From the NCBI GenBank assembly GCA_045602345.1, contig JAZSBI010000012.1:17-64016 (forward strand): a stretch of 64,000 nucleotides of DNA, read 5' to 3'. The stretch's first letter is position 1. Each line of letters opens with the position of its first letter. Of the stretch, positions 5,513-57,325 are shown piece by piece. Below the pieces are notes generated by a model, which did not search any database, was not told where the DNA came from, and was given only the letters and a program-made list of their open reading frames with translations. A program made the translations under genes and the position numbers. Source of the DNA: Acutalibacteraceae bacterium. Its GTDB lineage: Bacteria > Bacillota > Clostridia > Oscillospirales > Acutalibacteraceae.

Positions 5513-5538
5513 AGCAGGGCTTAAAACCCTGCTTTTTT
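5513..5538. terminator. hairpin terminator between convergent genes
   Basis: AGCAGGG-cttaaaa-CCCTGCT followed by TTTTTT, with an A-run on the 5' side. Confidence 0.65.
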
Positions 5539-5809
5539 ATTCTTTTACAGCCAAACGAACAATTTCTATTAATCGCCGTAAATGAGCATTTTCACTTTCA
5601 AGCGTTTCTTTTGTTTCACCTGTTATAAGCATTTCAAGAGAAACACCAAACAATTGAGCAATTCTATAGGCAGTTTCGACGTCCGGTAGAGCATCCTTAT
5701 AAATCCAGTTGGTTATTGTCGCCGCAGGAATTTCGAGACGTTCAGCAAGTTCTTTTTGCTGGACGTGATTATCTTTCATAAGTCTTTTAACATTATCCCA
5801 AAACATCAT
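5537..5809 (-). CDS. XRE/Cro-CI family HTH regulator (candidate phage repressor)
   Basis: Contains QKELAERLEIPAATITNWIYKDALPDVETAYRIAQLFGVSLEML, a classic HTH_3 pattern. It is the only minus-strand gene in the early region and is divergent from the rightward genes. Confidence 0.8.
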   Translation of the reverse strand: MMFWDNVKRLMKDNHVQQKELAERLEIPAATITNWIYKDALPDVETAYRIAQLFGVSLEMLITGETKETLESENAHLRRLIEIVRLAVKE

Positions 5810-5839
5810 AATTATATTTCGGCATTTTAATAAAAAAGG

Positions 5840-5868
5840 TTGAAAAAATCTATAAATAAAGATAAAAT
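5840..5868 (+). promoter_or_regulatory. candidate early rightward promoter
   Basis: TTGAAA-17 nt-TAAAAT in the divergent intergenic region. Confidence 0.45.
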
Positions 5869-5898
5869 ATATATATATTCTTCAAATAAATATTTTGT

Positions 5899-6075
5899 AT
5901 GTGCGTAAATAAAGAAGTGAGATTTAAGTGTAAATGCAATTCTCAACAGGTTTTTATAAGGACAGACGGGCAGTTTTTCTTTGTGCAATGTGAAGTATGC
6001 AAAACTCGAACAACAAACCAGCACAGCCCGGAAAAAGCAATTGAAGCATGGCAAAAAGGAAAGTTTCGTGCCTAA
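5899..6075 (+). CDS. small Cys-rich protein, Lar-like (restriction alleviation family) candidate
   Basis: Hand translation MCVNKEVRFKCKCNSQQVFIRTDGQFFFVQCEVCKTRTTNQHSPEKAIEAWQKGKFRA*. The CxC...CxxC plus EKAIEAWQ tail resembles the Lar family eeAieaWN signature. The start could instead be GTG 5917. Below the track cutoff. Confidence 0.4.
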   Translation: MCVNKEVRFKCKCNSQQVFIRTDGQFFFVQCEVCKTRTTNQHSPEKAIEAWQKGKFRA

Positions 6076-7802: not shown

Positions 7803-8099
7803 ATGGATTCTAGGGATTTTATCGCGGTAAAAGCAGAGATTCAGAAACAGAAAGCTTTGAAGTTTACGGGCATGATTAAAATTGGCGTAGACATGAACAG
7901 GTTCACACAACTTGGAATAAGCAATAATTATCAGGGTGTCTATGAAAAGTGTAACCAGCAGGATGTAGAAAAGGCCCTTGAGAACGTAAATTCTGGAAGC
8001 TTTATTATTGAATTCCAAAAGGGTGTTATCACAGCATATTCTTATGCACTGACATATAAAGCAGCCACTTTGACAAAAAGGATTCAAGAGAATGTATAA
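7803..8099 (+). CDS. hypothetical protein
   Basis: ORF track only. Confidence 0.55.
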   Translation: MDSRDFIAVKAEIQKQKALKFTGMIKIGVDMNRFTQLGISNNYQGVYEKCNQQDVEKALENVNSGSFIIEFQKGVITAYSYALTYKAATLTKRIQENV

Positions 8100-8274
8100 G
8101 TGCCGGAAATGTGGGGCAGAAATCAAATACATTACATCAGTAACCGGAACAAAACTATTCACGGTCGATGCAGAAAAGAAGCATTTTATTACGCCTTTTG
8201 GGCGCGAAGGTGACGGGTATACGCTGCATGTATGCGAGGTAAAAACAACGGATGATAAAGGAAAAACAGACTGA
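8092..8274 (+). CDS. small zinc-ribbon-like protein
   Basis: Starts MYKCRKCGAEI, with a later HVCE. Confidence 0.45.
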   Translation: MYKCRKCGAEIKYITSVTGTKLFTVDAEKKHFITPFGREGDGYTLHVCEVKTTDDKGKTD

Positions 8275-9079: not shown

Positions 9080-10684
9080 ATGGTAGTAGAGAAGCTAACA
9101 CCGATTGAAAGATTAAATTATTTGTACGCATTCTGCAAGTTTGATGATAAGCCACTTGTTTTAGACCCGTGGCAAGAAGACTTCATTCTTTCAACAAAAC
9201 AATTCACATCTATTCTTAAATCGCGCCGTATGGGCTGGTCATTTGTTACAGCTTTGAAGGGCTATAGTAAAGCACAAGACCCTGGAAGACAGAAATATGT
9301 AAAGCAGTTTATTTCTTATAACGAATCGGATGCTATCGAAAAGATACGCTATGCAAAAGAGTTTAATGATTCAGTTCCAAAATGGGCAAAGAAAAAGATT
9401 GTAACTGAAAACAAAACAGAATTAGAGTTTCTTGATACAAACGGGAAAACAACAAGCCGTTTAATATCAATGCCATGTAGACCGCCGCGCGGAAAAGGTG
9501 GAGACATTTCACTAGATGAATTCGGAATTTTCTTGCCTTCAATGTCAAAACAGGTGTATACAGCTGCTCTTTATGTAATTTCGCGTGGCGGCTGTATAGA
9601 GGTAGGTTCAACACCTTTAGGCTGTATCGGGCGGTTCTATGAGATATGCACGGATAAGAAACGATACCCAGCATATCAACGGTTTACTATTCCGTGGTGG
9701 TTTTCAACGGCATTGTGTACGGATGTTGCAACGGCTGTAAAAGAAGCGCCGTTTATGAATACAGCTGAAAGAGTAGAAAAATTCGCAACAGATACACTTA
9801 AAGAAATTTTCAATAACGATGTTCTGGAAGACTTTCAGCAAGAATGTGAATGCATGTTCATTGACACAGCTGAAAGCTACATAACACTTGATGAAATTTA
9901 CGGCTGTACACCGGGAATGACAGAAGATTTTTCTGTATACGATAATTCTGAATTACCAGAACCCGGCGAAACTGATTCATATTTAGGGCGTGAATTAAAG
10001 ATATTTAATACTGTTGATGATATGTGTTTAGGGTACGATCCAGACAAACACGGTATATTGTATCTTGGGTATGATGTGGCAAAATTACGCGATGCAGTTT
10101 CGATTTTCTTGCTCGGTAAAATGCCTGACGGAAAGCGCCGTGTTTATGGCTACGAGGAATTGAGGGCTAAAGACTTTGAATATCAATTGAACTGTATACG
10201 CAAGATTATGAAGTCTTTACCGGTGCACAGAGGGGCATTAGACAGTACCGGTATGGGTGCGCCTATTGCTGAAAGACTGACAAAAGAATTCCCTGAAAAA
10301 TTTGATGCAATTACATTCAGCGTGGAAACAAAGGAAAAAATGGCGCAAAGTATTAAGATAGGGTTACAGCGCAAGGAATTTTTACTTCCAAACGATAAAA
10401 ACTTACATCATCAGATACACAGTATAAGACGAACACCGACAACGGGCGGTCATTTCAAATACGATGCAAATAGAGACGAAAACGGTCATGCTGATAGTTT
10501 TTGGGGATTTGCGCTTGCAAATATAGCCTGTATTGATTCAGGTTCAAACTTCTATCTTGAAAGAGCTGCAAGGGCACAGGCAACAGCAAAAGAGGGAATA
10601 ATTACAGACCCGGATGAACTTAAAAAGGTTATTAAAGGGAAAAGTTTGAATTCGGTTAATCGCGGTTTTGGGCTTTATCGTTGA
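9080..10684 (+). CDS. terL: terminase large subunit
   Basis: 534 aa. Has an ATPase-like KSRRMGWSF and ISLDEFG, and a C-terminal nuclease-like GYDVA...ENGHADSFWGFALA. Located between TerS and the portal gene. Confidence 0.85.
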   Translation: MVVEKLTPIERLNYLYAFCKFDDKPLVLDPWQEDFILSTKQFTSILKSRRMGWSFVTALKGYSKAQDPGRQKYVKQFISYNESDAIEKIRYAKEFNDSVPKWAKKKIVTENKTELEFLDTNGKTTSRLISMPCRPPRGKGGDISLDEFGIFLPSMSKQVYTAALYVISRGGCIEVGSTPLGCIGRFYEICTDKKRYPAYQRFTIPWWFSTALCTDVATAVKEAPFMNTAERVEKFATDTLKEIFNNDVLEDFQQECECMFIDTAESYITLDEIYGCTPGMTEDFSVYDNSELPEPGETDSYLGRELKIFNTVDDMCLGYDPDKHGILYLGYDVAKLRDAVSIFLLGKMPDGKRRVYGYEELRAKDFEYQLNCIRKIMKSLPVHRGALDSTGMGAPIAERLTKEFPEKFDAITFSVETKEKMAQSIKIGLQRKEFLLPNDKNLHHQIHSIRRTPTTGGHFKYDANRDENGHADSFWGFALANIACIDSGSNFYLERAARAQATAKEGIITDPDELKKVIKGKSLNSVNRGFGLYR

Positions 10685-10741
10685 TAAAATCGTTGAATAA
10701 CGATATACTTTATTTAGTTTTATAGATTTATTTGTAGATAA

Positions 10742-10797
10742 TTTGTCTTGTAAAGGCAGTTATTGCGTTTTATGACGCGGTAACTGTCTTTTTTTTT
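10742..10797 (+). promoter_or_regulatory. conserved leader hairpin (10744-10758) overlapping an intrinsic terminator (10753-10790 plus T9), copy A
   Basis: TGTCTT-GTA-AAGGCA hairpin. A 15-bp terminator stem reuses AAGGCA. No convincing -35/-10 lies upstream. Confidence 0.7.
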
Positions 10798-12449: not shown

Positions 12450-12459
12450 CAGGCGGTAA

Positions 12460-13156
12460 ATGTACATGGATTTGCTACATGGTAATTGTTACGAGCTTAT
12501 AAAGAACCTGCCTGATAAAAGCATTGATGTTTGCATAACAGATCCGCCGTATCTGTTCAAAGAATCGGGGGGGGGGTATTATGAGAAAGCGTGATTATAC
12601 AAATCAATTAGCTGATTTGAATTGCTGCAATTTCAACCCGTCTGTTTTTCTGGATGCAATACACAGCAAGCTTAAAAAGACATATATTTATGCTTTTTGT
12701 AACAAATCATTGGTTTCTGAATACATTTCTTGGGCGCAAAAACACAAATGTAATTACGACATTCTTGTAATGTGCAAATCAAATCCAATACCGGCATACA
12801 ACAATCATTACTTGAGTGACTTTGAATACATAATAGTCATACGTGAACCGGGAACATATTTTTGCAAAGAGAAGGATATAGAGCTTTATAGAAAATGGTT
12901 TATGACTTCATGCAAAAAGGGCCTGCATCCAGCTGAAAAGCCGGTTACGCTGCTTGAGAAGTTTATAAAAGTATCTTGCCCGGATAACGGGACTGTTTTA
13001 GACCCGTTTATGGGTAGTGGCTCAACAGGTGTTGCTTGTGTAAGAACGAAGCGCAATTTTATCGGAATTGAGATAGACGAAAAATATTTTAAGCTTGCAA
13101 AAGAACGTATCAACGAAGCGAAAAATGAAAACATACTTTTTGATATGGCGGTGTAA
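12460..13156 (+). pseudogene. N4/N6 DNA methyltransferase (DPPY...FxGSGST type) interrupted by a frameshift at a G10 tract; phase-variable or homopolymer error
   Basis: 12460-12594 encodes MYMDLLHGNCYELIKNLPDKSIDVCITDPPYLFKESGGG then stops. The +1 frame (track ORF 12581..13156) carries LDPFMGSGSTGVACVRTKRNFIGIEIDEKYF. G9 would fuse the two parts. Confidence 0.75.
12567..12576 (+). repeat. G10 homopolymer inside the methyltransferase gene
   Basis: Counted directly: g at 12567-12576. Confidence 0.95.
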
Positions 13157-17400: not shown

Positions 17401-17623
17401 TGAAGTTTTGGACGTAAAGACATGCAAGTTTTGCCGACAGATAAACGGTACAATTGCTTTATGGAGCAATACGCCTTTAAGCAGCGAGAAAATAGTTGAT
17501 GATATTGCAACGGTTGCCATATGGGAAGGAAAAAGAGACGGAATTCCGGCCGGTTGTTGTCACCCTTATTGCCGCGGCGCATGGATAAGATACTATCCTG
17601 AAATTGAAAGGCAGGCTGCATAA
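14444..17623 (+). CDS. large MuF/SPP1 gp7-type minor head protein fusion (polyvalent protein)
   Basis: The C-terminus LDVKTCKFCRQINGT...CCHPYCRGAW is the Phage_Mu_F signature. A central YDYGYIRGTIGVDKDHVDVYIG resembles the inorganic pyrophosphatase motif. Lies downstream of the portal gene. Confidence 0.8.
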   Translation: MGFFEDFEKNEKPSSKNFFSRGDFDEYKISDEQLKAHGIGHFFNKDELIKRGKEIEKIYEQICKDTGLDMTTVVNKYRITKDGCYYDIENPTEKFYFDLKTKFDEAELVEKSAKYIKRWFSNGEWHYKYPPKYKANQNRTETKKDIAQSTKLITGIEPLRNPTEQEIDEALVQLSLYAINGKMKCGALGNHSVYVSDKTQEHIKETHGKPRIIPEIKHKAKYIPFVPELLKNGKIAEKSSSSKGVIYGIVGQVEYVNDKNKKVKEVVELAINYDKDTRKFVFSFSDWEIKKSLLNNRDLDNSLACPIVDTETVPITVYSLSETPILSSGTVNKSMSDKLFSLWTRRLSPEFCNELKKLMHDDEGFRLIPKKVYEIPGYPKGQDLENCDLLELSYDYFVISCGGDWQDEKLVKFTIGDDDKLSAKVIDTCEKENKTILKNKLAYIHNPDSIDKSLFIDWKAELKTICKEKNLDYEETFKKYDTSLLRKTCEVFGQDAENCIAYKACKDLNKSLTFSGYKLQGRTRLYGMDISIENKKGSYRSGTDKDGHKWKTFMHYDYGYIRGTIGVDKDHVDVYIGPDKEAQKVYVIHQNDPVTHKYDEDKCMLCFSSADEAKKAYLKQYDRPGFFGSMETFSIEQFKDVVFNKKGEKVVKPDYDGEDLLHKSFTFLLTGITENNKARKIEQLEKALTAISCRNPFILTHAEVDDSKKYNDIEIHFRDFNKSKIADAVDKVALELDEPLKAAKGEPFRYKAQEDLTNQVVRELTSKTAALYRLVIEYFGLPEANTVQKAFPLTYKGKVLYNPETGVPITRNDWQKFLNILDKFLNRNYTGQGERIILRSDALGRIMSRMLENQKRYKENLQDIRYKGKTFDWISDSVKNMKTTFGDSITRSQAAKIQIAQQSCTQRIKKVTENVRNDIQQILIDGIKDKKSRSQVAQDLFNRCHSLNRDFQKIADTEIQEASSKAYIAEELYNSEPGEKVYFKRIEVLDVKTCKFCRQINGTIALWSNTPLSSEKIVDDIATVAIWEGKRDGIPAGCCHPYCRGAWIRYYPEIERQAA

Positions 17624-17673
17624 TAAAAAAAAATAACTTTAGAAGTTTGCAACCGGGCGTTTGTTGATTTTTA

Positions 17674-17765
17674 GTGACAAAACAGAACTATCTTTGTTAT
17701 AATAGACTAGATTTGTTCTGCAAGAGCAGTCTTAAAACTTTGTTTTCAGGCTGCTCTTTTTTTTT
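17674..17765 (+). promoter_or_regulatory. promoter plus leader hairpin plus overlapping terminator, copy B
   Basis: GTGACA-18-TATAAT. Hairpin 17714-17728 (TGTTCT-GCA-AGAGCA). Terminator arms 17723-17732/17748-17757, then T9. Confidence 0.7.
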
Positions 17766-17791: not shown

Positions 17792-18883
17792 TTGCAGGTT
17801 GTTTATGTTATCAGAAAATCAGTTCTAAAATCATTCAGTTTTTTCAATCCTCTTGAAATTATAAAAAGTGGCCGCGCCTTGCCCGTTGGTACAATCAGAG
17901 AATGGAAAGGAAAAAAATACAAAAAAATTACTCCACAAAAATGGGTTGAAGTTAAAGAACAAAGAAAACACGGTGATTTGATACCCGAAGAAAAATTTAA
18001 TGCGAATAACTACAAAAATAAGTTTACAGATCCTAAGTGTACGAATGATGCAGCCGGAATAAAACATGTTTACTCTTTGCTCGGCGAAGAAGGACGTGCA
18101 ACACAAGCAATGGTTGAAAAGAAACTGAACGAACAAAGCCACAGACTTAAAAATGGCGATACACAAATCCGTAACATGCACAATATCAAATACGATGAAA
18201 ACGGTAAATTTGTTTCAGGTGAATGGAACGAAGAAAGAAAGAAGCTTCATCTTGAAATAATTAAAAAGATTCTCACGCCTGAAAAAGTAAATGCTTGCAA
18301 GCCGAAAAACGGAGAAAAGCCTAAGTTCATAATGTTCGGCGGCCGTGGTGGAAGCGGTAAGTCTTGGTTTACTGATAAAGAAAGAGCTGTAAAAGAAGGG
18401 CGCAAAGTTATGTTTGATAGTGACAATTACCTTATACTTGATGCTGACGAAATCAAAAAAGCTTTGCCGGAATTTCAGGGCTGGAACGCCGGAGAAGTTC
18501 ACGAAGAATCTTCTTTCTTGATGAAAGAAATTAAGAAAAATGCTATGGCGCAAGGGTTAAACATTATCATTGACGGCACAATGAATTATAACGAGAAAAA
18601 GCCGGACAAAGTAAGAAACGAAATGCTGGAAGCTAAATCAAAAGGCTATTCTCTTGAAGCGCATTATATGTTTACGCCGATTCAAAAAAGCTGCTTAAAT
18701 GCAATGAACAGATTCAAGACAAAAAAAGGCGATTTTTCAGGGCGTTTAGTTCCTACAGACATTCTTTTAGGTATGCAGGATAACGAAAAATCTTTTGATT
18801 CTGTCAAAGATATTGTTGATGATTGGACTTTCCGGGATAACCAAAACTATGATGCAAAGCTTGTCGCAAGAAAAGGTTTTTAG
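17792..18883 (+). CDS. zeta-toxin-like P-loop kinase with conserved N-terminal tag
   Basis: TTG start with AAAGGGG SD; the start is supported by alignment of its N-terminus to 21762 and 46841. Walker A FGGRGGSGKSWF, IIDGTM, FSGRLVP. Confidence 0.75.
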   Translation: MQVVYVIRKSVLKSFSFFNPLEIIKSGRALPVGTIREWKGKKYKKITPQKWVEVKEQRKHGDLIPEEKFNANNYKNKFTDPKCTNDAAGIKHVYSLLGEEGRATQAMVEKKLNEQSHRLKNGDTQIRNMHNIKYDENGKFVSGEWNEERKKLHLEIIKKILTPEKVNACKPKNGEKPKFIMFGGRGGSGKSWFTDKERAVKEGRKVMFDSDNYLILDADEIKKALPEFQGWNAGEVHEESSFLMKEIKKNAMAQGLNIIIDGTMNYNEKKPDKVRNEMLEAKSKGYSLEAHYMFTPIQKSCLNAMNRFKTKKGDFSGRLVPTDILLGMQDNEKSFDSVKDIVDDWTFRDNQNYDAKLVARKGF

Positions 18884-21645: not shown

Positions 21646-21736
21646 TCGACAACAAAAATGAAATAAGCTATAATTACAGCATGATTTGTCTTGCAAAGAC
21701 AGTCTAACTTTGATTAGTTCAGACTGTCTTTTTTTT
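21646..21736 (+). promoter_or_regulatory. promoter plus leader hairpin plus overlapping terminator, copy C
   Basis: TCGACA-17-TATAAT. Perfect hairpin 21687-21701 (TGTCTT-GCA-AAGACA). Perfect 10-bp terminator stem 21696-21705/21721-21730, then T8. Confidence 0.75.
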
Positions 21737-28889: not shown

Positions 28890-29288
28890 TTATAACGCCA
28901 AAAAAGGACGGTTAAAAACTTTCTGCAATTTATAAAGCGTTTCTAAAGTTGGGTTTGTTTTGCGAGGGTTCTCTAATCGCTGATATTGTTGATAAGTCAT
29001 TCCGGCTTTTTCAGCAATATCTTTTTGTGATTTTCCAGCGCGTGCTTTTCTTAGCTCAATGGCAAAAGCAACTTTCGGAGAAACTTCAACAGGATAACCA
29101 CCGGTATATTTTGAAGGGGGAATTGGGAAACCTTTTTCAATATCAACAGACAGAACGCCGTCAAGTGCATCTTTTGCCATTTCTAAGGCTTCTTCTAAAG
29201 AATAACCGTAAGTAAGAACATTTGTCATGTCAGGGAACTGTGCAATAAATTTACCGTCTTTTTCCGTTATATCGCAGTTGTAAATCAT
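28890..29288 (-). CDS. hicB: HicB-family antitoxin with C-terminal HTH
   Basis: The N-terminus MIYNCDITEKDGKFIAQFPDMTNVLTYGYSLEEALEMAKDAL and an XRE-type HTH (SQKDIAEKAGMTYQQYQRLE). Overlaps hicA by 4 nt. Confidence 0.85.
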   Translation of the reverse strand: MIYNCDITEKDGKFIAQFPDMTNVLTYGYSLEEALEMAKDALDGVLSVDIEKGFPIPPSKYTGGYPVEVSPKVAFAIELRKARAGKSQKDIAEKAGMTYQQYQRLENPRKTNPTLETLYKLQKVFNRPFLAL

Positions 29289-29506
29289 TTTTGTTTCTCC
29301 TTTAATGTCTTTGGGTCTATATTTGCTTGTTTCAAAATATCTTTTGCAAAATCGCCAAGATCATCATCTTTCCCTTTATGGAATGGAACAGGCACAGGAC
29401 GTGCAAAACCTTCTTTTACAAAGATATGGTGAGAGCTGTTTATTCTATTCAACTTCCAACCGTTCTTTTTTAGTATTTTCATTAATTGTTTTGCCGTCAT
29501 TCCCAT
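29285..29506 (-). CDS. hicA: HicA-family mRNA interferase toxin
   Basis: Contains MTAKQLMKILKKNGWKLNRINSSHHIFVKEG...VPFHKGKDDDLGDFAKDILKQANI. The start is set at the internal Met (29506), directly downstream of the promoter. Confidence 0.8.
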   Translation of the reverse strand: MGMTAKQLMKILKKNGWKLNRINSSHHIFVKEGFARPVPVPFHKGKDDDLGDFAKDILKQANIDPKTLKEKQK

Positions 29507-29512
29507 ATCAAT

Positions 29513-29541
29513 AACATACAACATATATACTGTATTGTCAA
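29513..29541 (-). promoter_or_regulatory. hicAB promoter (possibly leaderless)
   Basis: Minus strand TTGACA-17-TATGTT. The A of ATG 29506 is the 7th nt after the -10. Confidence 0.5.
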
Positions 29542-29629
29542 TGATAATAATTTTCAAAAAACTCTATCTGACACCAACGCCGATAGTTAAATAATTGTAT
29601 TTATAATTACGTAAACAAAGATAAAATAC

Positions 29630-30205: not shown

Positions 30206-30750
30206 ATGGTAGGACGAACAAATGTTTCTGTAAACAGAATGGGGGGGGGGTGTTAGTTAAGGTTAACGCTTCCGGCATTGACCTTAGCAACAACGAAAAC
30301 GGCGGTTTTGGTTGGGGCGGAGATAATGCAGGTGCTTCTTATGCCGTCAGAGAGCCGCTTTCTGTAAGGGATAATGCGGACGGCACGGTCGATATATTGT
30401 CGGCTTATCAAGACCCCACTGGTTTCAGGCATCCATATTTTGCGGTGCATTGCAACGGCGATGAAACATTCCTGATGCATATAAGAAGCATGAAAGTGAA
30501 CACCTATATAGACTGGAACAGAAACGATGTGGCGATGGTTTCCTCTCCATTTGCGCTAAACGCAACTTTAGCGCAGGCGCAGAAAGTCATTGTTGTAAAG
30601 CCGACTTTTGACGTAGCAAATTATGAAGTCAAAATAAGCTTTGGCGCGAGAGGTGTGGACGACGCAGGGCTTTTCGGCGTTACGATGTACAAGGTTAAGA
30701 CACGCAAACTGTTTGACGCTCTGGGGCTTTTTAGGCGTGAATCTGTATAA
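30206..30750 (+). pseudogene. paralog B, reading frame broken at a 5' G10 tract (phase-variable candidate)
   Basis: ATG 30206 lies 2 nt after the upstream stop and encodes MVGRTNVSVNRMGGGC*. G11 would join it to the long frame (track ORF 30250..30750). Confidence 0.6.
30241..30250 (+). repeat. G10 homopolymer
   Basis: Counted directly: g at 30241-30250. Confidence 0.95.
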
Positions 30751-30760
30751 GGATTTTTTA

Positions 30761-30840
30761 TTGAAGCAAAAAACAAAATGATGTATACTTGTTTCTAACG
30801 ATTTGTTTCGCAGGAACAGTCTCATATTAATGGAGGTTGT
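30761..30840 (+). promoter_or_regulatory. promoter plus leader hairpin, copy E (no terminator)
   Basis: TTGAAG-17-TATACT. Hairpin 30804-30818 (TGTTTC-GCA-GGAACA). A possible alternative stem 30816-30823/30833-30840 covers the SD GGAGG. Confidence 0.65.
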
Positions 30841-30846
30841 CTCTTA

Positions 30847-32895
30847 ATGAACAAATCGGATTTCAATTCTTTATCACCAGAAACAAAGCTTAACTACTTC
30901 AAACGTGAACTTATCAAACGCCTTGCAGAACAAGAAAAAAAAGACAAACAGATAGTAAAAAAAGCTCTTTCATTTCTTGATATTATTTCAATTCAGAAAA
31001 GTGCAGGCGGCACAACAAGAAAGCGTCACGGCGTAGGCGAGCATGTTATATGGCACGGTCAGGAATATGTAAAAGTTTCCGAACATCCAGCAAGATACAA
31101 GCCCTATTATCGTGAAAACAGCCGTGGTGCACAACTTGCGGCGGCGGCAATTGCAAAAAAAATACGCGCTGCAAAAGATATTGATGAATTGATGCAGGTT
31201 GTTCAAGACAATATGCAGCGTTTCGGCTTTTCGTCCGACGGCAACGATCCATTGTTCAAACTTATGAAAGAAGCCCGGAAAGAATGGGCTAAAAACAAAA
31301 AATCTGGAAAATCGCCGCTTAGTGCTATGAGCACAAAAGAAATGCGTAAAAAATACGGAATTTCTGAAAAGAAAAAAGATGCAAACAATAAACCTGCAGG
31401 CGGCAATATTGAAGACAAGAAAAAGGCGTTAAAAGAAGTTGAAGACGCTATTGATAATGCCGGTGATTATGATGATATTGAGGAACTCGAAAACGAGCGT
31501 CAAAAACTACTCAAAGAAATAAAAGCATCTGAAAAGAAACCGGAACAAAAAGAACCAGAAGCCGAGAAAACAAAGAACCGTAGCGACGCAATGAAGGGAA
31601 ACAAAAACGCCTATAAAGACGGCCCGAAAGACGAAGAAAAAACACAGCGTTTCGCTACTCAAGATGAAGTTGACGAAGCTACAGCCGCTTGCGATAAACA
31701 AACAATTGAACGAAAAGACATGTTGAAAAAGCCTGCAACTCAAATTCAGCAGTATGCAAATTCAAACGTTGAGAATTTTGAAGGTGGCATTGATAAATTT
31801 ATCGAGCATATGCGCGAAGGTAATTCTGATATTTCAATGCAGAAAATTGGAAACGAATTCGCAAAATTGATAAATCATAATATCGCGCGCGATATATGGA
31901 ACGAATACGAATCAGGTCATTTGAAGATTGATGAAAACGGCTTATTCAAAGCAGCTGATGAAGACAAGCTTGAAAGCGAAAAGAATGATACAGAAAAGGC
32001 TATTGAAACAGCTAAAGAACAAATCAAAGAGAATGTAGAACACTACAAAAAATCTGAATATAACAGATGGTCTGCTGAATCAATCATCCGTAAACTCGGC
32101 AAAAAGAAACTAGAGGTATATGCAAACGCAAAAATTGAACTGGATGCAGAAAACTACGAAAAAGATTTGATTGCAAAAGTTGAAAGCATGATTAAAGACG
32201 GGAAAACAGTCAGTGAAACATCAATAGGTTTTGCAGTAAATAATCATTTTATCAATATTGAGTGTCAGAAACTTGCAAGAGCAAAACTTGAAAGCATGGA
32301 AAAAGTGGCCACAGAAATAGACTTGCCGGTAGATCCTGCTGATATGACAGAAGCAAGGTCTATTATTGGTGCTGATGTTGCTCGAATTTTGAACGGACGT
32401 GATGTATACGGGAATGCCAAACAAACTTTGACAGACAAAATACGAAGACGTGTACGCAACAATCCAGGTGTAGCGCGCGCTATGCTTGTTTTTATAAAAC
32501 AGGAACAGGAAAGAACCGGCAAAACCGTTTACACACCGAAACACAGTATATGGGAAGTTTTACCAAAACTCAATGAAAACGCAAAACAGGCAGCCGAAAA
32601 AGGCGAAGGCGAGAAGAAAACTGGTACATCCGGTGTATTGTATCACTCGGATGATGGTGTAACGGTTGTTGAAGATAAGGATTGGGGCAGATATAAAGTA
32701 GAATTCCCCGGCAAGCCTGATTCAGATACAATCAGCACATTGAAACACAACGGCTTTAGATGGTCTCCAAAAAACAAAGTTTGGGTATGCTACAACACAG
32801 CAAACGGCGAGTATTCATTAAAACGTGTTGCTGAAAAGCTCGGCTGGAAGAAAGGCGATTCAAAAGAATCTGCTGATGATACGGAGGGCGTGTAG
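30847..32895 (+). CDS. large K/E-rich multidomain protein with one NRSxAMxGNxNA motif
   Basis: 682 aa. KNRSDAMKGNKNAYK at nt 31573-31617. Has a compact C-terminal domain ...LKHNGFRWSPKNKVWVCY. Confidence 0.7.
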   Translation: MNKSDFNSLSPETKLNYFKRELIKRLAEQEKKDKQIVKKALSFLDIISIQKSAGGTTRKRHGVGEHVIWHGQEYVKVSEHPARYKPYYRENSRGAQLAAAAIAKKIRAAKDIDELMQVVQDNMQRFGFSSDGNDPLFKLMKEARKEWAKNKKSGKSPLSAMSTKEMRKKYGISEKKKDANNKPAGGNIEDKKKALKEVEDAIDNAGDYDDIEELENERQKLLKEIKASEKKPEQKEPEAEKTKNRSDAMKGNKNAYKDGPKDEEKTQRFATQDEVDEATAACDKQTIERKDMLKKPATQIQQYANSNVENFEGGIDKFIEHMREGNSDISMQKIGNEFAKLINHNIARDIWNEYESGHLKIDENGLFKAADEDKLESEKNDTEKAIETAKEQIKENVEHYKKSEYNRWSAESIIRKLGKKKLEVYANAKIELDAENYEKDLIAKVESMIKDGKTVSETSIGFAVNNHFINIECQKLARAKLESMEKVATEIDLPVDPADMTEARSIIGADVARILNGRDVYGNAKQTLTDKIRRRVRNNPGVARAMLVFIKQEQERTGKTVYTPKHSIWEVLPKLNENAKQAAEKGEGEKKTGTSGVLYHSDDGVTVVEDKDWGRYKVEFPGKPDSDTISTLKHNGFRWSPKNKVWVCYNTANGEYSLKRVAEKLGWKKGDSKESADDTEGV

Positions 32896-34980: not shown

Positions 34981-36327
34981 ATGACAATAATTGATTTTGA
35001 CGTATTAAAAAGTTTTGCTGATAGTTTTGGATATGATATTGTAATAGAAAAGCGTGTTAATGGACGGAACATAGCAAAGCTGATAAAGCGCCGTGTTCAA
35101 GATAAAAACGGTAAAATGACAACTGTTTATGTTAAAAATGGTGAAGAAGTGAAAATTCACACAAATAGGAACGGCAAGGCTGTAGGTGAGGTTGACATAA
35201 CCGGCAAGACAAAACATATATTAGGAAGCAAAGTTAGTTTTTCAAATAAGAACGGCAAAAATCAGAACGGCTTTATTGTTGAATCAAGAAACAACATGGA
35301 TGTAATACAAGACATTCACGGCGTTAGGCACTTTGTTCCGCACGACGCTATCCAGGTGAAGCATCTAACGCCGGAAACAATCAATAAAAAAATGTCTGCA
35401 AAAGATTTTAATGCTGCTGAATATAACCGTAAATATGATGATTTTGAAGCAAACGGAAGCTATAAAGGCATTGACTATTCTCTACAAAAATTCATAAGCG
35501 GTCTGAAAGACACGCATCCAGAAATTGAGCAGCGAATAAACTATGATATTAAAAGAGCTGAATCAAAACCCGAAACGATTTCGCTTTACAGGTTGAGCGG
35601 AGAGGGCGCGGAAGCTGTTTATTCTAAAGAACGGGAAGAAATACATAAAAAGATTATGGCTGAATTTTTTACGCCAGAAAAAATATGGAATACAACGCCC
35701 ATAGGAAACGAAAAACCGAAATTCCTTATTTTAGGTGGCAGAGGCGGAAGCGGCAAATCAGCCTTTAATGCAGATGAACATCCTGAATCCGGTGTATATT
35801 CAGAGAAAAACGTAATAAAGGTTGACCCTGACGAATTAAAAGAAAAGCTTGCAAACCTGACAGAAAAAGAGGGTTGGCAGGGTTATATGGCGGCGGCTTA
35901 TCACGAAGAATCAAGCGATTTATCAAAGAAAATAATGAAACAAGCAGTTTTAATGAACTTGAATGTTGTCATGGATATTACAATGTCGAATGCAGACAAG
36001 CAAATTGAAGAATTGGAACTTGCTCATTCATACGGATATGAAACAGGCGTTCATTATATGCACGTACCGAAACAAGACAGTTTCCGGCGCGCGATGTGTA
36101 GATATTGCGAAAACAAAAAGACAAAAGAATTTGATTATTCCGGGAGACTTGTTCCGCCGAGCGTATTATTGAGCATGGTTAATAATGAAGAAAACTTTGA
36201 AAAAATCAAAAAGTATGCTGATAATTGGAGTTTTTGGAACAATTTTATTCCGTGGAAGAATCCAGACGGCACAAAAAACGGAGCTATTAAAATTTGTGAG
36301 GGTGGAAAGCAGAAGGCTTGCCGATAA
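34981..36327 (+). CDS. zeta-toxin-like P-loop kinase, paralog 2
   Basis: Contains KPKFLILGGRGGSGKSAFN, VVMDITMSN and YSGRLVPPSVLLSM. Its C-terminal half is collinear with 17792..18883. Confidence 0.75.
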   Translation: MTIIDFDVLKSFADSFGYDIVIEKRVNGRNIAKLIKRRVQDKNGKMTTVYVKNGEEVKIHTNRNGKAVGEVDITGKTKHILGSKVSFSNKNGKNQNGFIVESRNNMDVIQDIHGVRHFVPHDAIQVKHLTPETINKKMSAKDFNAAEYNRKYDDFEANGSYKGIDYSLQKFISGLKDTHPEIEQRINYDIKRAESKPETISLYRLSGEGAEAVYSKEREEIHKKIMAEFFTPEKIWNTTPIGNEKPKFLILGGRGGSGKSAFNADEHPESGVYSEKNVIKVDPDELKEKLANLTEKEGWQGYMAAAYHEESSDLSKKIMKQAVLMNLNVVMDITMSNADKQIEELELAHSYGYETGVHYMHVPKQDSFRRAMCRYCENKKTKEFDYSGRLVPPSVLLSMVNNEENFEKIKKYADNWSFWNNFIPWKNPDGTKNGAIKICEGGKQKACR

Positions 36328-36429: not shown

Positions 36430-36654
36430 ATGGGAGAATGTTTCTTAAAAGACGATTTTAACGATCCAACTTTGGTTTATCACATTATCAGACCGGCAAA
36501 GCCTGAAAAATACATCAAAGATACAGCCCTTAACAAAGACGATATGAAAGACCCAAATAATTTTGGCAGCCCTGAATTTTCTGCATGGGTTTTAGAATGT
36601 ATCGAAAATGGGAAAAAGATTAGTCAGAAAGCTAAAGAAGCCAAAGCATGTTGA
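36430..36654 (+). CDS. hypothetical protein
   Basis: ORF track. AGAGAGGTG SD upstream. Confidence 0.6.
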   Translation: MGECFLKDDFNDPTLVYHIIRPAKPEKYIKDTALNKDDMKDPNNFGSPEFSAWVLECIENGKKISQKAKEAKAC

Positions 36655-36666
36655 TAAACTCTTTAG

Positions 36667-36754
36667 TTGACAACACTGAAATATAAATATATTATGACAC
36701 TATAGATTTGTCTTGCAAAGGCAGTCGTACTTTATGTATGGCTGCCTTTTTTTT
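36667..36754 (+). promoter_or_regulatory. promoter plus leader hairpin plus overlapping terminator, copy D
   Basis: TTGACA-17-TATTAT. Hairpin 36709-36723 (TGTCTT-GCA-AAGGCA). Terminator arms 36718-36726/36740-36748, then T8. Confidence 0.75.
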
Positions 36755-36775
36755 ATGGTCAGCCAAGAGGATTTT

Positions 36776-38158
36776 ATGGCTGATTCTTTGATAGACATTT
36801 CAGTTCCATTTATTATATGTAAATCACTGGAAGAAGGTTTTGATAATGACGGCAATTACATTTTTGAAACCGAAGCATCAAACGAAAACTTAGACCTTCA
36901 AAATCAAATCACACAGCAAACAGCCCTATTAGATTCTAAAGAATACTTTCTTTCAAATGGTGTAGTTTCCGACGATCACCAGCATAAAAAAAGACGGCCG
37001 GACGGCACAATAGAAACAGATAAATCAAAAATAATCGGTGAACCAATTTCAGTAAGAACAGAAGGCAAAAGAACTTTTGTAAAAGGCAAACTGTATGGCG
37101 CGGTAGAAGCGGCAAAGCCTTTTATTACTTTGCTTAAAGCTCATTCATCAAGAGTCAAAGCGTCAATCGGCGGAATAATGCCGCGCATTGTCAAAAATCC
37201 AGACGGCACAGAAACAATAACATCATTCTTATGGAATGATATGGCACTGACTGTATCGCCTGTTAATTACACTGTTGGCAGTGCATGTTTTGCAAAATCT
37301 TTGACAAATGCAGAATTCTGCAAAGCTTTAACAGCAGAAAGTCCGGCTGGAATGGCATTACAGCACGAAGATTTAGAACCGCATATTACACAGGCACAGC
37401 TTGCAAAAGACAGTGAAATTGAAAAGAACAATGACAAAAATGAAGCATTGATAAGAAACTGTTTAACAGAAATTAAAAATAAAAAACTACAGTCAAATGA
37501 AACTGAAATAACAAACTATCTTATTTTTCACGGTATGAACAAACACACAGCACAGGCTGCGGCTTGTGAAATTATAAAGCAAGGAGGGCCTATTATGGCT
37601 AAGAGCTGGTTCAGACAGCAGCTTGATGAAATCTTTCAGAAATCGTTGCCTGACAACGAAAAACCAAAGAAAGACGATGAAGCTGTTAATGAAAACGATC
37701 TTGATTTGGATGGAATCAATGATAACGAAGATGGAAACGACAACGACGATGTTGATAAATCCATTGTCGACATGACATCGATTCTGAAATCGGTTGATGC
37801 AGAAATGACTACAATGCGTCAGACAATTGAAGATCAAAAAGCACAGATTGCGGAATTGCAGGGCGCTGTTCTCGATGTAACAAAGTCATTTTCTTCTTAT
37901 CTTGAAAAGCCAAATGCACGTCAAACTGTTATTCAGAAAAGCGCGACAAACACACAGCAGGCAAAGAAGGCTGCAAAGCCTGATACAACTGATTTTGATG
38001 TTTTGAAATCTGCTTTGATGAAAGCAAGCCACGAAGGAAAAATTGGAGTTGAGACTGTTCAGCTTTACAGCAGCGAATTCCAGAAGGCAATGAAAGGCGA
38101 AACTGTGAACCCAAAGGTTATGCAGGATATTTGCCGTTTCGTAAATGCCAATAAATAA
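36776..38158 (+). CDS. prohead protease (XkdF/S78-like) fused to a coiled-coil scaffold-like C-terminus
   Basis: The start is moved to ATG 36776 (AAGAGGA SD), because the track start TTG 36713 lies inside the leader hairpin. Contains DDHQH, SIGG and ALTVSPVN motifs. Lies upstream of the capsid gene. Confidence 0.6.
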   Translation: MADSLIDISVPFIICKSLEEGFDNDGNYIFETEASNENLDLQNQITQQTALLDSKEYFLSNGVVSDDHQHKKRRPDGTIETDKSKIIGEPISVRTEGKRTFVKGKLYGAVEAAKPFITLLKAHSSRVKASIGGIMPRIVKNPDGTETITSFLWNDMALTVSPVNYTVGSACFAKSLTNAEFCKALTAESPAGMALQHEDLEPHITQAQLAKDSEIEKNNDKNEALIRNCLTEIKNKKLQSNETEITNYLIFHGMNKHTAQAAACEIIKQGGPIMAKSWFRQQLDEIFQKSLPDNEKPKKDDEAVNENDLDLDGINDNEDGNDNDDVDKSIVDMTSILKSVDAEMTTMRQTIEDQKAQIAELQGAVLDVTKSFSSYLEKPNARQTVIQKSATNTQQAKKAAKPDTTDFDVLKSALMKASHEGKIGVETVQLYSSEFQKAMKGETVNPKVMQDICRFVNANK

Positions 38159-49675: not shown

Positions 49676-49731
49676 TTGACAACAATTGAAATAAAACGTA
49701 AAATATAACGGATGTTTGTATCGTAGGTACA
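49676..49731 (+). promoter_or_regulatory. promoter plus leader hairpin, copy F
   Basis: TTGACA-17-TAAAAT. Hairpin 49717-49731 (TGTATC-GTA-GGTACA). Confidence 0.65.
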
Positions 49732-49757
49732 GCAATTATTTAAGGCTGGTAAATCCT

Positions 49758-50525
49758 ATGATATGTTATATCAACAGAGGACTAATACTCGAACAACTTC
49801 TTGTAAGTGCATTTACTGATTATTTTAAGACAATCAATCTTGAAGGCATTTACAAAAACTTTCATGTCAACGTAACTAATTCACATCCATTTGCAGATTT
49901 ACTTGCCTACGAATCAGAAAAAACAAACGATAACTTTCCAGCCGTTATAATCACCACAGAATCAGAAGACAAAACAAGCGAATTAATGGACTTAGCGCCG
50001 GAAGTAGATGCTGTTGGTTTTGACCTTGCCAGAATTGAAGAACTGACACAAAACACAGAAATAATCATCAAAAAGGGTAAGGAAAAACAGGAAAAAATTC
50101 CAGGTTATTGCAATATTATTGATTCTGATGCAATAGAAACAATCAAAAGTGTCATTGAAAAACAAAACTATATTTACGGTATTGATATAAGAAACCGTAG
50201 AACTGACCATGTTTCAATTGAAATTTGGGCTGAAAACAATCAGCTAAAGAATGAGCTTTATGAGCAGATAAGGCTTTTTGTTACCGGAAATCTTCGATTC
50301 ATTTTAAGAAATAACAAATATCTTCCATATGATATAGCACTTTTTGACTCAACAATCAGCGGACAGCGTTCAAATAATTATAATTTTGATTTTTCTACAA
50401 CTTTGTGCGGTGCACGAATTTCTTTTGACGTAAATTATCGCGTTGAACAAATCGTTTTAGACACTGAAATAACAGGACTCAATAAAGACATTATTGTGGA
50501 GGTAAACAATCATGTCAAAATCTAA
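49758..50525 (+). CDS. hypothetical virion protein (start moved downstream of the leader hairpin)
   Basis: The track start TTG 49716 lies inside the hairpin. ATG 49758 is in frame. The SD is weak (AAGG). Confidence 0.55.
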   Translation: MICYINRGLILEQLLVSAFTDYFKTINLEGIYKNFHVNVTNSHPFADLLAYESEKTNDNFPAVIITTESEDKTSELMDLAPEVDAVGFDLARIEELTQNTEIIIKKGKEKQEKIPGYCNIIDSDAIETIKSVIEKQNYIYGIDIRNRRTDHVSIEIWAENNQLKNELYEQIRLFVTGNLRFILRNNKYLPYDIALFDSTISGQRSNNYNFDFSTTLCGARISFDVNYRVEQIVLDTEITGLNKDIIVEVNNHVKI

Positions 50526-52983: not shown

Positions 52984-52996
52984 GCTTTAATTACTG

Positions 52997-53024
52997 ACGC
53001 TGCTGTAACAGGCAGCGTTTTTTA
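52997..53024 (+). terminator. intrinsic terminator after the tube gene
   Basis: ACGCTGCT-gtaaca-GGCAGCGT followed by TTTTTT. Confidence 0.65.
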
Positions 53025-55850: not shown

Positions 55851-55905
55851 TTGACAGTAAAAAGATATAATTATAAAATGTAGTAACGTTTGTATCGCAG
55901 ATACA
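55851..55905 (+). promoter_or_regulatory. promoter plus leader hairpin, copy G
   Basis: TTGACA-17-TAAAAT. Perfect hairpin 55891-55905 (TGTATC-GCA-GATACA). Confidence 0.7.
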
Positions 55906-55927
55906 GCACAAATCGTGAGGTACAAAC

Positions 55928-57325
55928 GTGCGCGAAACCAATATACATGCAAGAGTTATCAAGCCGAAAGTTTTAATTAAAGATAACGAAAGCGGAAATA
56001 TCAAAAAGACCTTCGCGCCTTCTGCAGGCTGTAAAAGCCTTCTCAATTACACATTTCAGACTGGAATCAACGACACAAAAGGTTCATTCTCATTAACATT
56101 TTATCCAGACGATGAAAACGGCAATCCTATTTTTGACCAAATTTCCGTTATGGATATTGTAGAAATTCACGAGCGTATTGACCCGAAAGACGAAAATTCA
56201 AAGCCTGATTTTATAGGTGTTGTTAAAAGTAGAAAATATGTTTCTCAAGTTACAGGAAGCGGAATTCAAAGAAAATTATCTGTATCTGGTATCTCTGTTA
56301 TCGGTTTAATTGCTGATTATGAAATAAACCTTGACAGCAAGGCTTGTGCCATAACAAATCAAATGAGCGTAACAGAAGAAATTCGCAAAAAACTTTCAAT
56401 TCAGCTTATTAAAGAAAATTTAACTGTTAAAGAAGTTATAGATGCAGTTTGGGAGCACTTCAAACACAATGCTAATGCTTTTGGTTGTTTGGCAAATCCA
56501 AAAATCGGTGAAATTCTTGAAAAATTTTGCGGTTCAATATTCCAGGTAGAAGACGGGCTTAATGTTCATTATTATATCGGCAATCTGTTTAATGATTCAG
56601 GCTGCAATAATTTTTATGGCATAATTGACGGTGTTACGCCTTCGCCGCCGTATGAAAAAAGAATCATCATGGATGATACAGGCCCTAAAATTGCAATCCG
56701 TGAATGTCCTTTTGGTGACAGCTGGCAGAATCTTGATGATACAATACAGACTATTGATCCGACGTATGTAAGAGCTTATGATTTTACACAGTCTGACAGT
56801 GATGTATATACAGTCTTTTTCAGCTATGTCAACGGTTATCCGGTTCAAGAAGACAAAGCCCTTAAACTTAATGCAATTGCACAAAACAAAGACGGCACTT
56901 TGGAAATTGCTAATAAGAAAATGGGCATTTACGGCTACAAGCCGCTTATGGTTACATTCAACGGTTACGGCAAAGAAGACGGTAAACAGGACACTACAAC
57001 TAATGAGAAGCTTCAAAAGCTGAATCAAAAACTGATGAAATGGTTCGGGCAGTTAGACGAAATGCTGACGGGTAGCTTGACTGTTATAACCTACAAGAAA
57101 ACAGACAGTGAAACAAAAGAAGTGCCGAAGCCCGGCGAAAAAATCAAATTCTTAGGCGGTGAGTGGTACATAGAGACAGCCCGGCATACATGGAATTATG
57201 GCGGCAGCCCTGAAACTGTTTTGACCATTTCGCGTGGCGGTGATTATTCTAGCGGTGAATTCGCGCCATTAAAAAACGCATCTACGGCTTACAAGTTGTT
57301 TGAAGAAGGGAAAAAGCAGGAATGA
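55928..57325 (+). CDS. baseplate hub / gpD-XkdQ-like protein
   Basis: GTG start with GTGAGG SD. It is the first gene after the tape measure. Assigned by position only. Confidence 0.5.
   Translation: MRETNIHARVIKPKVLIKDNESGNIKKTFAPSAGCKSLLNYTFQTGINDTKGSFSLTFYPDDENGNPIFDQISVMDIVEIHERIDPKDENSKPDFIGVVKSRKYVSQVTGSGIQRKLSVSGISVIGLIADYEINLDSKACAITNQMSVTEEIRKKLSIQLIKENLTVKEVIDAVWEHFKHNANAFGCLANPKIGEILEKFCGSIFQVEDGLNVHYYIGNLFNDSGCNNFYGIIDGVTPSPPYEKRIIMDDTGPKIAIRECPFGDSWQNLDDTIQTIDPTYVRAYDFTQSDSDVYTVFFSYVNGYPVQEDKALKLNAIAQNKDGTLEIANKKMGIYGYKPLMVTFNGYGKEDGKQDTTTNEKLQKLNQKLMKWFGQLDEMLTGSLTVITYKKTDSETKEVPKPGEKIKFLGGEWYIETARHTWNYGGSPETVLTISRGGDYSSGEFAPLKNASTAYKLFEEGKKQE

Follow-up and report, generated by a model that had tools for sequence, protein, structure and literature searches.

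In the ribonucleic antiterminator (RAT) systems of BglG, SacY, and LicT, a weak conserved 5' hairpin overlaps the 5' part of a terminator, termination is the default outcome, and clamping of the hairpin by a protein results in readthrough. The RAT element is approximately 29 nt long with two internal loops, and it is bound by proteins with CAT and PRD domains that respond to signals from the sugar phosphotransferase system. In phage Mu, the zinc-finger protein Com (62 aa) binds a short hairpin beside a "translation inhibition structure" that holds the mom start codon, and activates the translation of a late function (PMC6483171). In the present study, we describe a 22-nt hairpin that is found in seven copies in a 64,000-nt stretch of contig JAZSBI010000012.1 (hereafter, the window), which, judging from its sequence, is that of an uncultured myovirus-like phage; terminase, portal, head protease, sheath, and baseplate proteins are all encoded in it. 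With a probability of roughly 55%, each copy may be regarded as a cis-acting leader RNA that heads a late unit and serves as a factor-dependent ON-switch with either a transcriptional or a translational platform. In our best reading, the element is to be likened to RAT/LicT together with Mu Com and would belong to neither family, since the defining protein or RNA features of each known system fail; the kind of mechanism appears to be known, and this hairpin regulon is most likely new.

A scan of the window with the pattern TTTGTNNNGYANNNACAG, allowing up to one mismatch, gave 10 matches against 0.71 expected from shuffles, and none of 100 shuffles reached 10. Among these matches are all seven plus-strand sites that had been listed in a sequence-only reading of the window, with 6-bp stems beginning at 10744, 17714, 21687, 30804, 36709, 49717, and 55891, positions by which the copies are named below; all features lie on the plus strand unless otherwise specified. 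The stems were also as listed there (TGTCTT/AAGACA, TGTCTT/AAGGCA twice, TGTTCT/AGAGCA, TGTTTC/GGAACA, TGTATC/GGTACA, and TGTATC/GATACA), and the compensatory changes held: all six stem pairs form in seven of seven copies, with T:G on the plus strand as the only non-Watson-Crick pair. The 6-bp stem of that description stands, and the description was too small because a lower helix with a U·G pair and a bulge had been overlooked. According to RNAfold and the alignment of relatives, the full hairpin of 22 nt comprises a 3-bp lower helix (P1) topped by the U·G pair, a 1-nt 5' bulge, a 6-bp helix (P2), and a triloop. P1 is GAU/GUC in most window copies, AAU/GUU at 10744, UGU/GCA at 49717, and CGU/GCA at 55891, where the outer C·A is unpaired, and CGU/GCG or GGU/GCU in relatives. 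The loop is GCA or GUA in all seven window copies, and varies between related phages and inside some genomes.

A first alignment of eight sequences, consisting of the seven window copies and one variant from L035, a close relative with a portal 96% identical to that of the window, showed pairing in 100% of cells and changes on both sides in four of the six pairs, and the observed covariation score was reached by none of 500 shuffles. In the L035 homolog of 17714, UGCUUU/AGAGCA stands in place of UGUUCU/AGAGCA, and two pairs switch between wobble and Watson-Crick with pairing kept. When 23 sequences from the window and relatives were compared, pairing was seen in 97% of cells, and the two outer P1 pairs covary (GC 14, AU 2, CG 2, GU 2, UA 1; and AU 15, GC 7). 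The core of the element is invariant in 23 of 23 sequences, namely, the U·G pair at the top of P1 and the U-A and G-C pairs that begin P2, and the U·G pair was present in 34 of 34 distinct hairpins. Of 26 hairpins, 24 are more stable as plus-strand RNA than as the complement (-5.4 vs -2.5 kcal/mol; Wilcoxon p = 1.4e-5), and 46 of 233 pairs are G·U. Since the inner positions vary and yet pair, G·U is frequent, and the plus strand is the stabler one, the structure belongs to plus-strand RNA and not to a DNA palindrome, as had been proposed from the base changes in the seven copies. A looser descriptor composed of P1, the bulge, and P2 without sequence was rejected as not specific (37 matches vs approximately 22 in shuffles).

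A search of related phages with a covariance model, which had been put forward as a check on the element, gave a positive result. The model, R2, derives from window sequences and those of relatives; run on both strands at E < 1, it returned 28 matches from 623 kb and 17 from 347 kb, of which 45 of 45 lie on the gene strand, and those inspected are located in leaders ahead of genes. In total, 34 distinct leaders of related metagenomic phages were found to have the element together with its terminator overlap. In four relatives (L068, L069, L070, and L072), the hairpin recurs at homologous sites, ahead of the baseplate module and ahead of the gene that precedes that of the sheath, with a terminator in some of these leaders and none in others. 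A second group of leaders, with GGU-N-...-GCC followed by an AGCCGS terminator, is read as having the same layout of P1, bulge, and P2. In the window itself, the segment 19811-19875 has a TTGACA-17-TAATAT promoter followed by AAGGUGUAAGGC...GCCUU, which resembles the GGUGU-type leaders of relatives and has neither a lower helix nor a terminator. No match was obtained in the window with Rfam 15 at gathering thresholds; at E <= 5, the sole match near a leader was L20_leader at 36629-36759, with 27.7 bits against a gathering threshold of 58.7. Literature searches gave no description of this element.

The hairpin overlaps with competing structures. At 10744, 17714, 21687, and 36709, a very strong intrinsic terminator is located between the promoter and the gene, with the entire 3' strand of the hairpin as its 5' base, and the minimum-free-energy (MFE) fold of the leader is not the hairpin, but an 11-18-bp stem followed by 8-9 T. 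Before the portal gene, the hairpin at 10740-10761 (AAU-U-UGUCUU-GUA-AAGGCA-GUU, with a covarying AAU/GUU as P1) overlaps the terminator at 10752-10797, the stem of which has 18 bp and is followed by a T-run. The terL stop codon is at 10684, and the same terminator also closes the upstream unit. Before the zeta-toxin-domain gene, the hairpin at 17710-17731 (GAU-U-UGUUCU-GCA-AGAGCA-GUC) overlaps the terminator at 17722-17765, and before the head protease gene, the start of which is truly at 36776, the hairpin at 36705-36726 overlaps that at 36717-36754. In the leader of the DarB-like gene, the hairpin at 21683-21704 (GAU-U-UGUCUU-GCA-AAGACA-GUC; 31.0 bits with R2) provides with its 3' strand the 5' strand of the terminator at 21695-21736 (stem 21695-21731, then a T-run), and the leader has an MFE of -28.7 kcal/mol (z = -3.8). 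The four strongest plus-strand terminators of the window all carry the hairpin motif. In these four leaders, the energy is -4 to -6.5 kcal/mol for the hairpin and -17 to -24 kcal/mol for the terminator state, and the computed barrier for refolding from the hairpin to the terminator is 0.7-6.3 kcal/mol. The two folds are mutually exclusive, and this holds beyond the window: terminator-type leaders from the window and relatives were evaluated in 29 cases, and in all 29, the terminator stem takes up 8-9 of the 9 nt that make up the hairpin 3' strand, with mean energies of -3.7 kcal/mol for the hairpin and -24.1 kcal/mol for the terminator state. The leaders of L042 and L044 are outside these 29, as a T-run in the terminator loop misled the script, and their folds show the same overlap.

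This overlap of an antiterminator hairpin with the 5' strand of a terminator, in four of the seven window copies and in all 29 terminator-type leaders, is the likeness to RAT. A binding site for a phage RNA-binding antiterminator had been suggested previously in a boxB-like or a RAT-like form, and the RAT-like form fits best, whereas the boxB-like form leaves the terminator overlap unexplained. The element nevertheless differs from RAT, by informal comparison, in its consensus, length of 22 nt, 1-nt bulge, and triloop, in its presence in a phage in multiple copies over late genes, and in having a translational version as well; furthermore, no protein with a CAT_RBD or PRD domain was found among approximately 50 window proteins scanned against Pfam and PHROGs.

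In the three copies without a terminator, the start region of the gene that follows contains a segment complementary to the hairpin 5' strand. The hairpin at 30800-30821 precedes the 682-aa gene, and the segment at 30849-30858, from the G of AUG through codon 4, forms a 10-bp helix with 30799-30808 (MFE -19.2 kcal/mol, z = -3.45). The hairpin at 49713-49734 (UGU-U-UGUAUC-GUA-GGUACA-GCA) precedes gene 49758, and its 5' arm and loop (49717-49727) pair with the segment CCUAUGAUAUG at 49755-49765, which contains the AUG (MFE -19.3 kcal/mol, z -3.5, and -17.6 kcal/mol, z -3.7, in two foldings). The hairpin at 55887-55908 precedes the first baseplate-module gene, which begins with GUG at 55928, and the segment GGUACAAACGU at 55919-55929, which spans the end of the Shine-Dalgarno sequence through the second base of the GUG, forms an 11-bp helix with 55886-55896 (MFE -15.8 kcal/mol). 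Collectively, the three leaders have MFE values of -15.8 to -19.2 kcal/mol and z of -3.3 to -3.7. When ranked among 59 start regions, the gene's own region was first for the 30804 and 55891 leaders and third for the remaining one, and random 40-mers paired equally well with frequencies of 0.034, 0.020, and 0.003 for the three leaders, the value of 0.3% being that of 55891. An equivalent helix between the 5' end and the start codon is kept in the baseplate leader of the relative L068.

A hairpin beside a helix that sequesters the start codon, as found at 30804, 49717, and 55891, is the likeness to Com and mom, and the presence of a conserved 60-aa zinc-ribbon gene (FAM2, see below) is another, although a role of FAM2 is pure conjecture. 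Com differs in having one target and no terminator version and in reading a loop motif, and FAM2 had no match to the Pfam Com family at E <= 1 and nothing significant in a profile search of the PDB. The possession of one sensor hairpin with a terminator or a start-codon platform, which are swapped at homologous positions, is also reminiscent of riboswitches and T-boxes; the platforms are interchangeable in this sense among the relatives. The sensor of the present element is, in contrast, a bulged hairpin of 22 nt, too small for a metabolite pocket, which implies a macromolecular ligand.

The sequence-only reading had placed the copies at the heads of late units, downstream of strong sigma-70-type promoters, and this was borne out. 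The genes that follow were confirmed as those of the portal, a zeta-toxin-domain protein, the DarB-like giant, the 682-aa protein, the head protease, gene 49758, and a baseplate-module protein. Six promoters were found as quoted, with a gap of 10-14 nt separating the -10 hexamer from the first T of the stem, corresponding to 8-12 nt to the conserved ATT. They are GTGACA-18-TATAAT with a TG extension at 17674-17703 (11/12 matches), TCGACA-17-TATAAT in the DarB-like gene leader at 21646-21674 (11/12, ending 12 nt before the stem), TTGAAG-17-TATACT at 30761-30789 (9/12), TTGACA-17-TATTAT at 36667-36695 (11/12), and TTGACA-17-TAAAAT at both 49676-49704 and 55851-55879 (11/12 each). The seventh copy, 10744, also has a promoter-like site, TTGATA-17-TATACT at 10681-10709 (10/12), 34 nt before the stem. 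Of the 22 promoter-like sites on the plus strand with at least 10/12 matches, six are followed by a copy at a distance of 10-34 nt, and five of the six with 11/12 matches sit just upstream of one. The proposal that the hairpin lies at the extreme 5' end of the transcript may be retained for this phage only, as the predicted distances suggest; in relatives, the hairpin is 20-30 nt from the -10 hexamer.

The following sequence of events may be proposed for each unit. A near-consensus host-type promoter would fire, and the nascent RNA would have two alternative folds available, the first being the weak bulged hairpin (P1 with its U·G pair, the bulge, P2, and the loop) and the second a far stabler competitor that shares one of the hairpin strands, which is the terminator in four leaders and the start-codon helix in three. 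Because the hairpin shares a strand with the terminator or with the start-codon helix, it would be the ON conformer in both designs, and because it is weak and its competitors (-15.8 to -24 kcal/mol) are much stronger, the default is expected to be OFF, which implies a stabilizer acting in trans. RNA left alone would be terminated or untranslated. A trans-acting factor produced at an earlier stage of the infection, which is most likely an RNA-binding phage protein of small size, may recognize the U·G/bulge/U-A/G-C core and clamp the hairpin, upon which RNA polymerase would read through or the start codon would be freed, such that all structural-gene units would be turned on together. The unit that ends at the terminator at 10752-10797 contains the replication genes, terS, terL, and two conserved small genes, and a factor encoded in it would therefore give a simple early-to-late cascade. 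The switch predicts abundant short terminated leader transcripts, which are an expected by-product at lambda PR' in Stx phages (PMC7547250).

Several points weigh against this switch. Co-transcriptional folding could permit substantial readthrough independently of any factor. The copies within a genome are paralogs and the relatives share ancestry, and the covariation counts are therefore not those of independent events. The loops differ between phages; therefore, a reader, if it is a protein, must use the helix core and not the loop. No CAT, ANTAR, N, Q, or Com-like domain was detected among the approximately 50 window proteins scanned against Pfam and PHROGs, with the phage genome lying partly beyond the window. 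No known antiterminator domain emerged from Pfam scans of early-region and other small proteins, which yielded two helix-turn-helix proteins, a HicAB pair, and an HD-domain protein.

As for the identity of the presumed factor, two small genes just upstream of terS are speculative candidates by position alone and have no direct link to RNA. FAM1 (7803-8099) encodes 98 aa, and its family of approximately 100-aa proteins has two F-x-G-x-[IV]-K...G-x-[IV]-V repeats; FAM2 (8092-8274), which is paired with FAM1, encodes a CxxC...HxC zinc ribbon of 60 aa, as is typical of its family (approximately 60 aa). The pair is kept upstream of terS in most related loci, e.g., L003, L006, L037, L042, L043, and L046-L067. 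Neither protein had a family match in Pfam, PHROG, or PDB sequence searches, a word-index search for homologs of FAM1 returned only one near-identical protein, and single-sequence AlphaFold models of FAM1 and FAM2 were unusable (pLDDT 46 and 43). In L006, FAM1 carries a fused HTH_3 domain, and if this fusion suggests any activity, it is DNA binding.

Among the alternatives to a strand-sharing switch, processive antitermination survives best and is nonetheless unlikely in our assessment. The hairpin would load a protein or RNA polymerase, as in the lambda N/boxB type or the factor-free HK022 put type, and the modified polymerase would ignore downstream terminators. The hairpin is close to the promoter in this phage, it is conserved in three copies without an adjacent terminator, a further terminator (52996-53019) lies within a hairpin-headed unit, and the presence of several sites per genome recalls nutL and nutR, all of which are consistent with a processive system. 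In lambda, a strong constitutive late promoter is followed by an immediate terminator, and a phage factor is needed for readthrough, as proposed here. Q binds DNA and sigma-paused polymerase, whereas N modifies polymerase processively via boxB and Nus factors, and neither uses a hairpin that shares a strand with the terminator; moreover, there are seven units here and one in lambda. By inspection, a -10-like ANNNT is present just upstream of the hairpin and is not significant. The possibility that the conserved GAT belongs to a sigma-dependent pause element resembling a -10 hexamer was rejected, since the enrichment of that pattern (A at -6 or -5) is only marginal and the covarying pairing with GUC in P1 explains GAT better. 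A processive mechanism has no need for strand sharing with a terminator, and yet 29 of 29 leaders share one, and in the copies that lack a terminator, the sharing is with the start-codon region instead, which indicates a structural switch. The boxB hairpin has approximately 15 nt and a GNRA-like pentaloop, with an upstream boxA and an arginine-rich N protein as its partner, whereas the window copies have a 3-nt GCA or GUA loop in seven of seven cases that varies among relatives and is not similar to a GNRA-like pentaloop, and no boxA was recognized. A likeness of the pyrimidine-rich 5' arm to the boxA of rrn operons was considered and set aside. No N-like protein was identified in the window, and such proteins escape homology detection. 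The put RNAs are approximately 70 nt long and consist of two hairpins, in contrast to the single 22-nt hairpin, and a put-like cis-acting RNA, another of the roles suggested at first, leaves the obligatory terminator overlap unexplained.

We consider it quite unlikely that the leaders are factor-independent attenuators or insulators, in which the 5' hairpin forms first and grants a fixed partial readthrough, the main task of the terminator is to halt transcripts that enter from the upstream unit, and no switching is involved. The closure of preceding units by the leader terminators, as at terL, is in accordance with this possibility, and kinetic trapping of 5' hairpins is a known phenomenon. 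However, the weakness of the hairpin and the low barrier toward the terminator fold argue against a trap of this kind. Transcripts that are derived from upstream contain the same hairpin, which therefore cannot distinguish between the two kinds of transcript, and a simple kinetic competition needs no invariant U·G/bulge/U-A/G-C core in the middle of a helix.

An element acting at the DNA level appears improbable, be it an operator of a dimeric regulator, a non-template-strand hairpin of the ops/RfaH type, or a promoter-terminator recombination cassette. Promoter-terminator stem-loop (PeSL) cassettes of T4-type phages are repeated at module boundaries (PMC2839356, PMC4122927) and provide a precedent for the last of these. 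The present leaders likewise repeat a promoter and a stem-loop at module boundaries, and one of them coincides with a mosaic junction: window 17600-17735 and L035 12830-12910 show no relationship ahead of GATTTG in the 17714 leader, and their sequences are the same from the hairpin on, which makes the leader, exactly at 17714, the junction, and the genes upstream of it differ between the two phages. TGT-N9-ACA resembles a palindromic operator, and the fusion of FAM1 to a helix-turn-helix domain in L006 is compatible with a DNA-binding regulator. On the other hand, the inner stem varies freely and always pairs, which a duplex operator would not need, and the 46 G·U pairs, with the strong strand bias, would read as A·C mismatches in the opposite strand. 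A hairpin in the non-template strand is compatible with the strand bias and leaves the overlaps with terminators and start codons unexplained, and recombination at leaders can be a by-product of their repetition. Unlike in PeSL, the promoter precedes the terminator within one leader, and the covariation of the hairpin together with strand sharing argues for an RNA switch and not only a recombination joint. Finally, a 5' stabilizer or RNA-processing signal, by which the hairpin would shield the 5' ends of late mRNA from 5'-end-dependent nucleases or mark a cleavage site, was also among the roles suggested initially and is very improbable because, despite a hairpin that begins approximately 5-9 nt from the predicted transcript 5' end in this phage, it explains neither the strong terminator between the promoter and the gene nor the sharing of its strand, and the hairpin of relatives is 20-30 nt from the -10 hexamer.

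Regarding the phage itself, a DNA search against cultured phages gave no match, and it has no close cultured relative, its portal being only approximately 29% identical to those of Herelleviridae. Homologs of the portal, sheath, and capsid at 40-67% identity are often found in metagenomes. The 30 matches in genome collections (L038-L067) fall mostly in metagenome-assembled genomes of Treponema or Treponemataceae from the rumen, horse feces, and termite gut, and this binning suggests a spirochete host, such that the phage probably infects Treponema. These contigs, some of which are approximately 130-160 kb, are possibly prophages or phage-plasmids. IMG/VR contained almost no relatives of the window phage, and a pattern scan of that database with GATTTGTNNNGCANNNRCAGTC was rejected because its 28 matches were all chance matches within coding regions. 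The 79-kb contig JAEEGH010001126.1 (L073) represents a near-identical relative with a capsid 98% identical to that of the window, and the hairpin sequences of its leaders equivalent to 30804, 36709, and 49717 are identical.

Other features of the window were also observed. A CI/Cro-type helix-turn-helix gene on the minus strand at 5537-5980 and the early/replication operon face each other over an intervening AT-rich region that contains promoter-like sites, an arrangement that looks like a lysis-lysogeny switch. At 12459-13156, a G10 tract (12567-12576) splits an N6/N4 DNA methyltransferase, with the N-terminal part and its DPPY motif in one frame and the Pfam-matched rest (open reading frame 12581-13156) in another, which is either a phase-variable switch or an assembly error. 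A second G10 tract (30241-30250) within 30206-30750 divides a short open reading frame starting at approximately 30206 from that at 30250-30750 in a different frame, a layout that matches that of the methyltransferase. A pair consisting of a HicA toxin and a HicB-like antitoxin with a helix-turn-helix domain lies on the minus strand at 28890-29557 inside the late region, opposite to the surrounding genes. Two proteins with zeta-toxin (kinase) domains are encoded in the structural region at 17792-18883 and 34981-36327, near the gene for the DarB-like methylase-helicase of 2361 aa.

If the leaders are switches of the kind proposed, a regulon RNA with an invariant core spans the whole structural region of this phage, and a single sensor hairpin has two outputs, a terminator or the masking of a start codon. 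To our knowledge, a sensor with both outputs has not been described for phage antitermination systems, and the control of late genes is, as far as we know, understood in few model phages, such as through lambda Q, T4 gp55/gp33, P2 Ogr, and RinA or Alt in those of Gram-positive bacteria, and not in spirochete phages. More tentatively, and as a possibility on which we would not rely, a single small phage RNA-binding protein, maybe the FAM1/FAM2 pair, may act via the U·G/bulge core as both an antiterminator and a translational activator at the seven or more late operons, and would then represent an undescribed class of late-gene master regulators that is widespread in gut and rumen spirochete phages. 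The 22-nt hairpin would provide a bait for this regulator, and the covariance model would provide a signature by which the late operons of uncultured phages of the gut, rumen, and digesters may be recognized.

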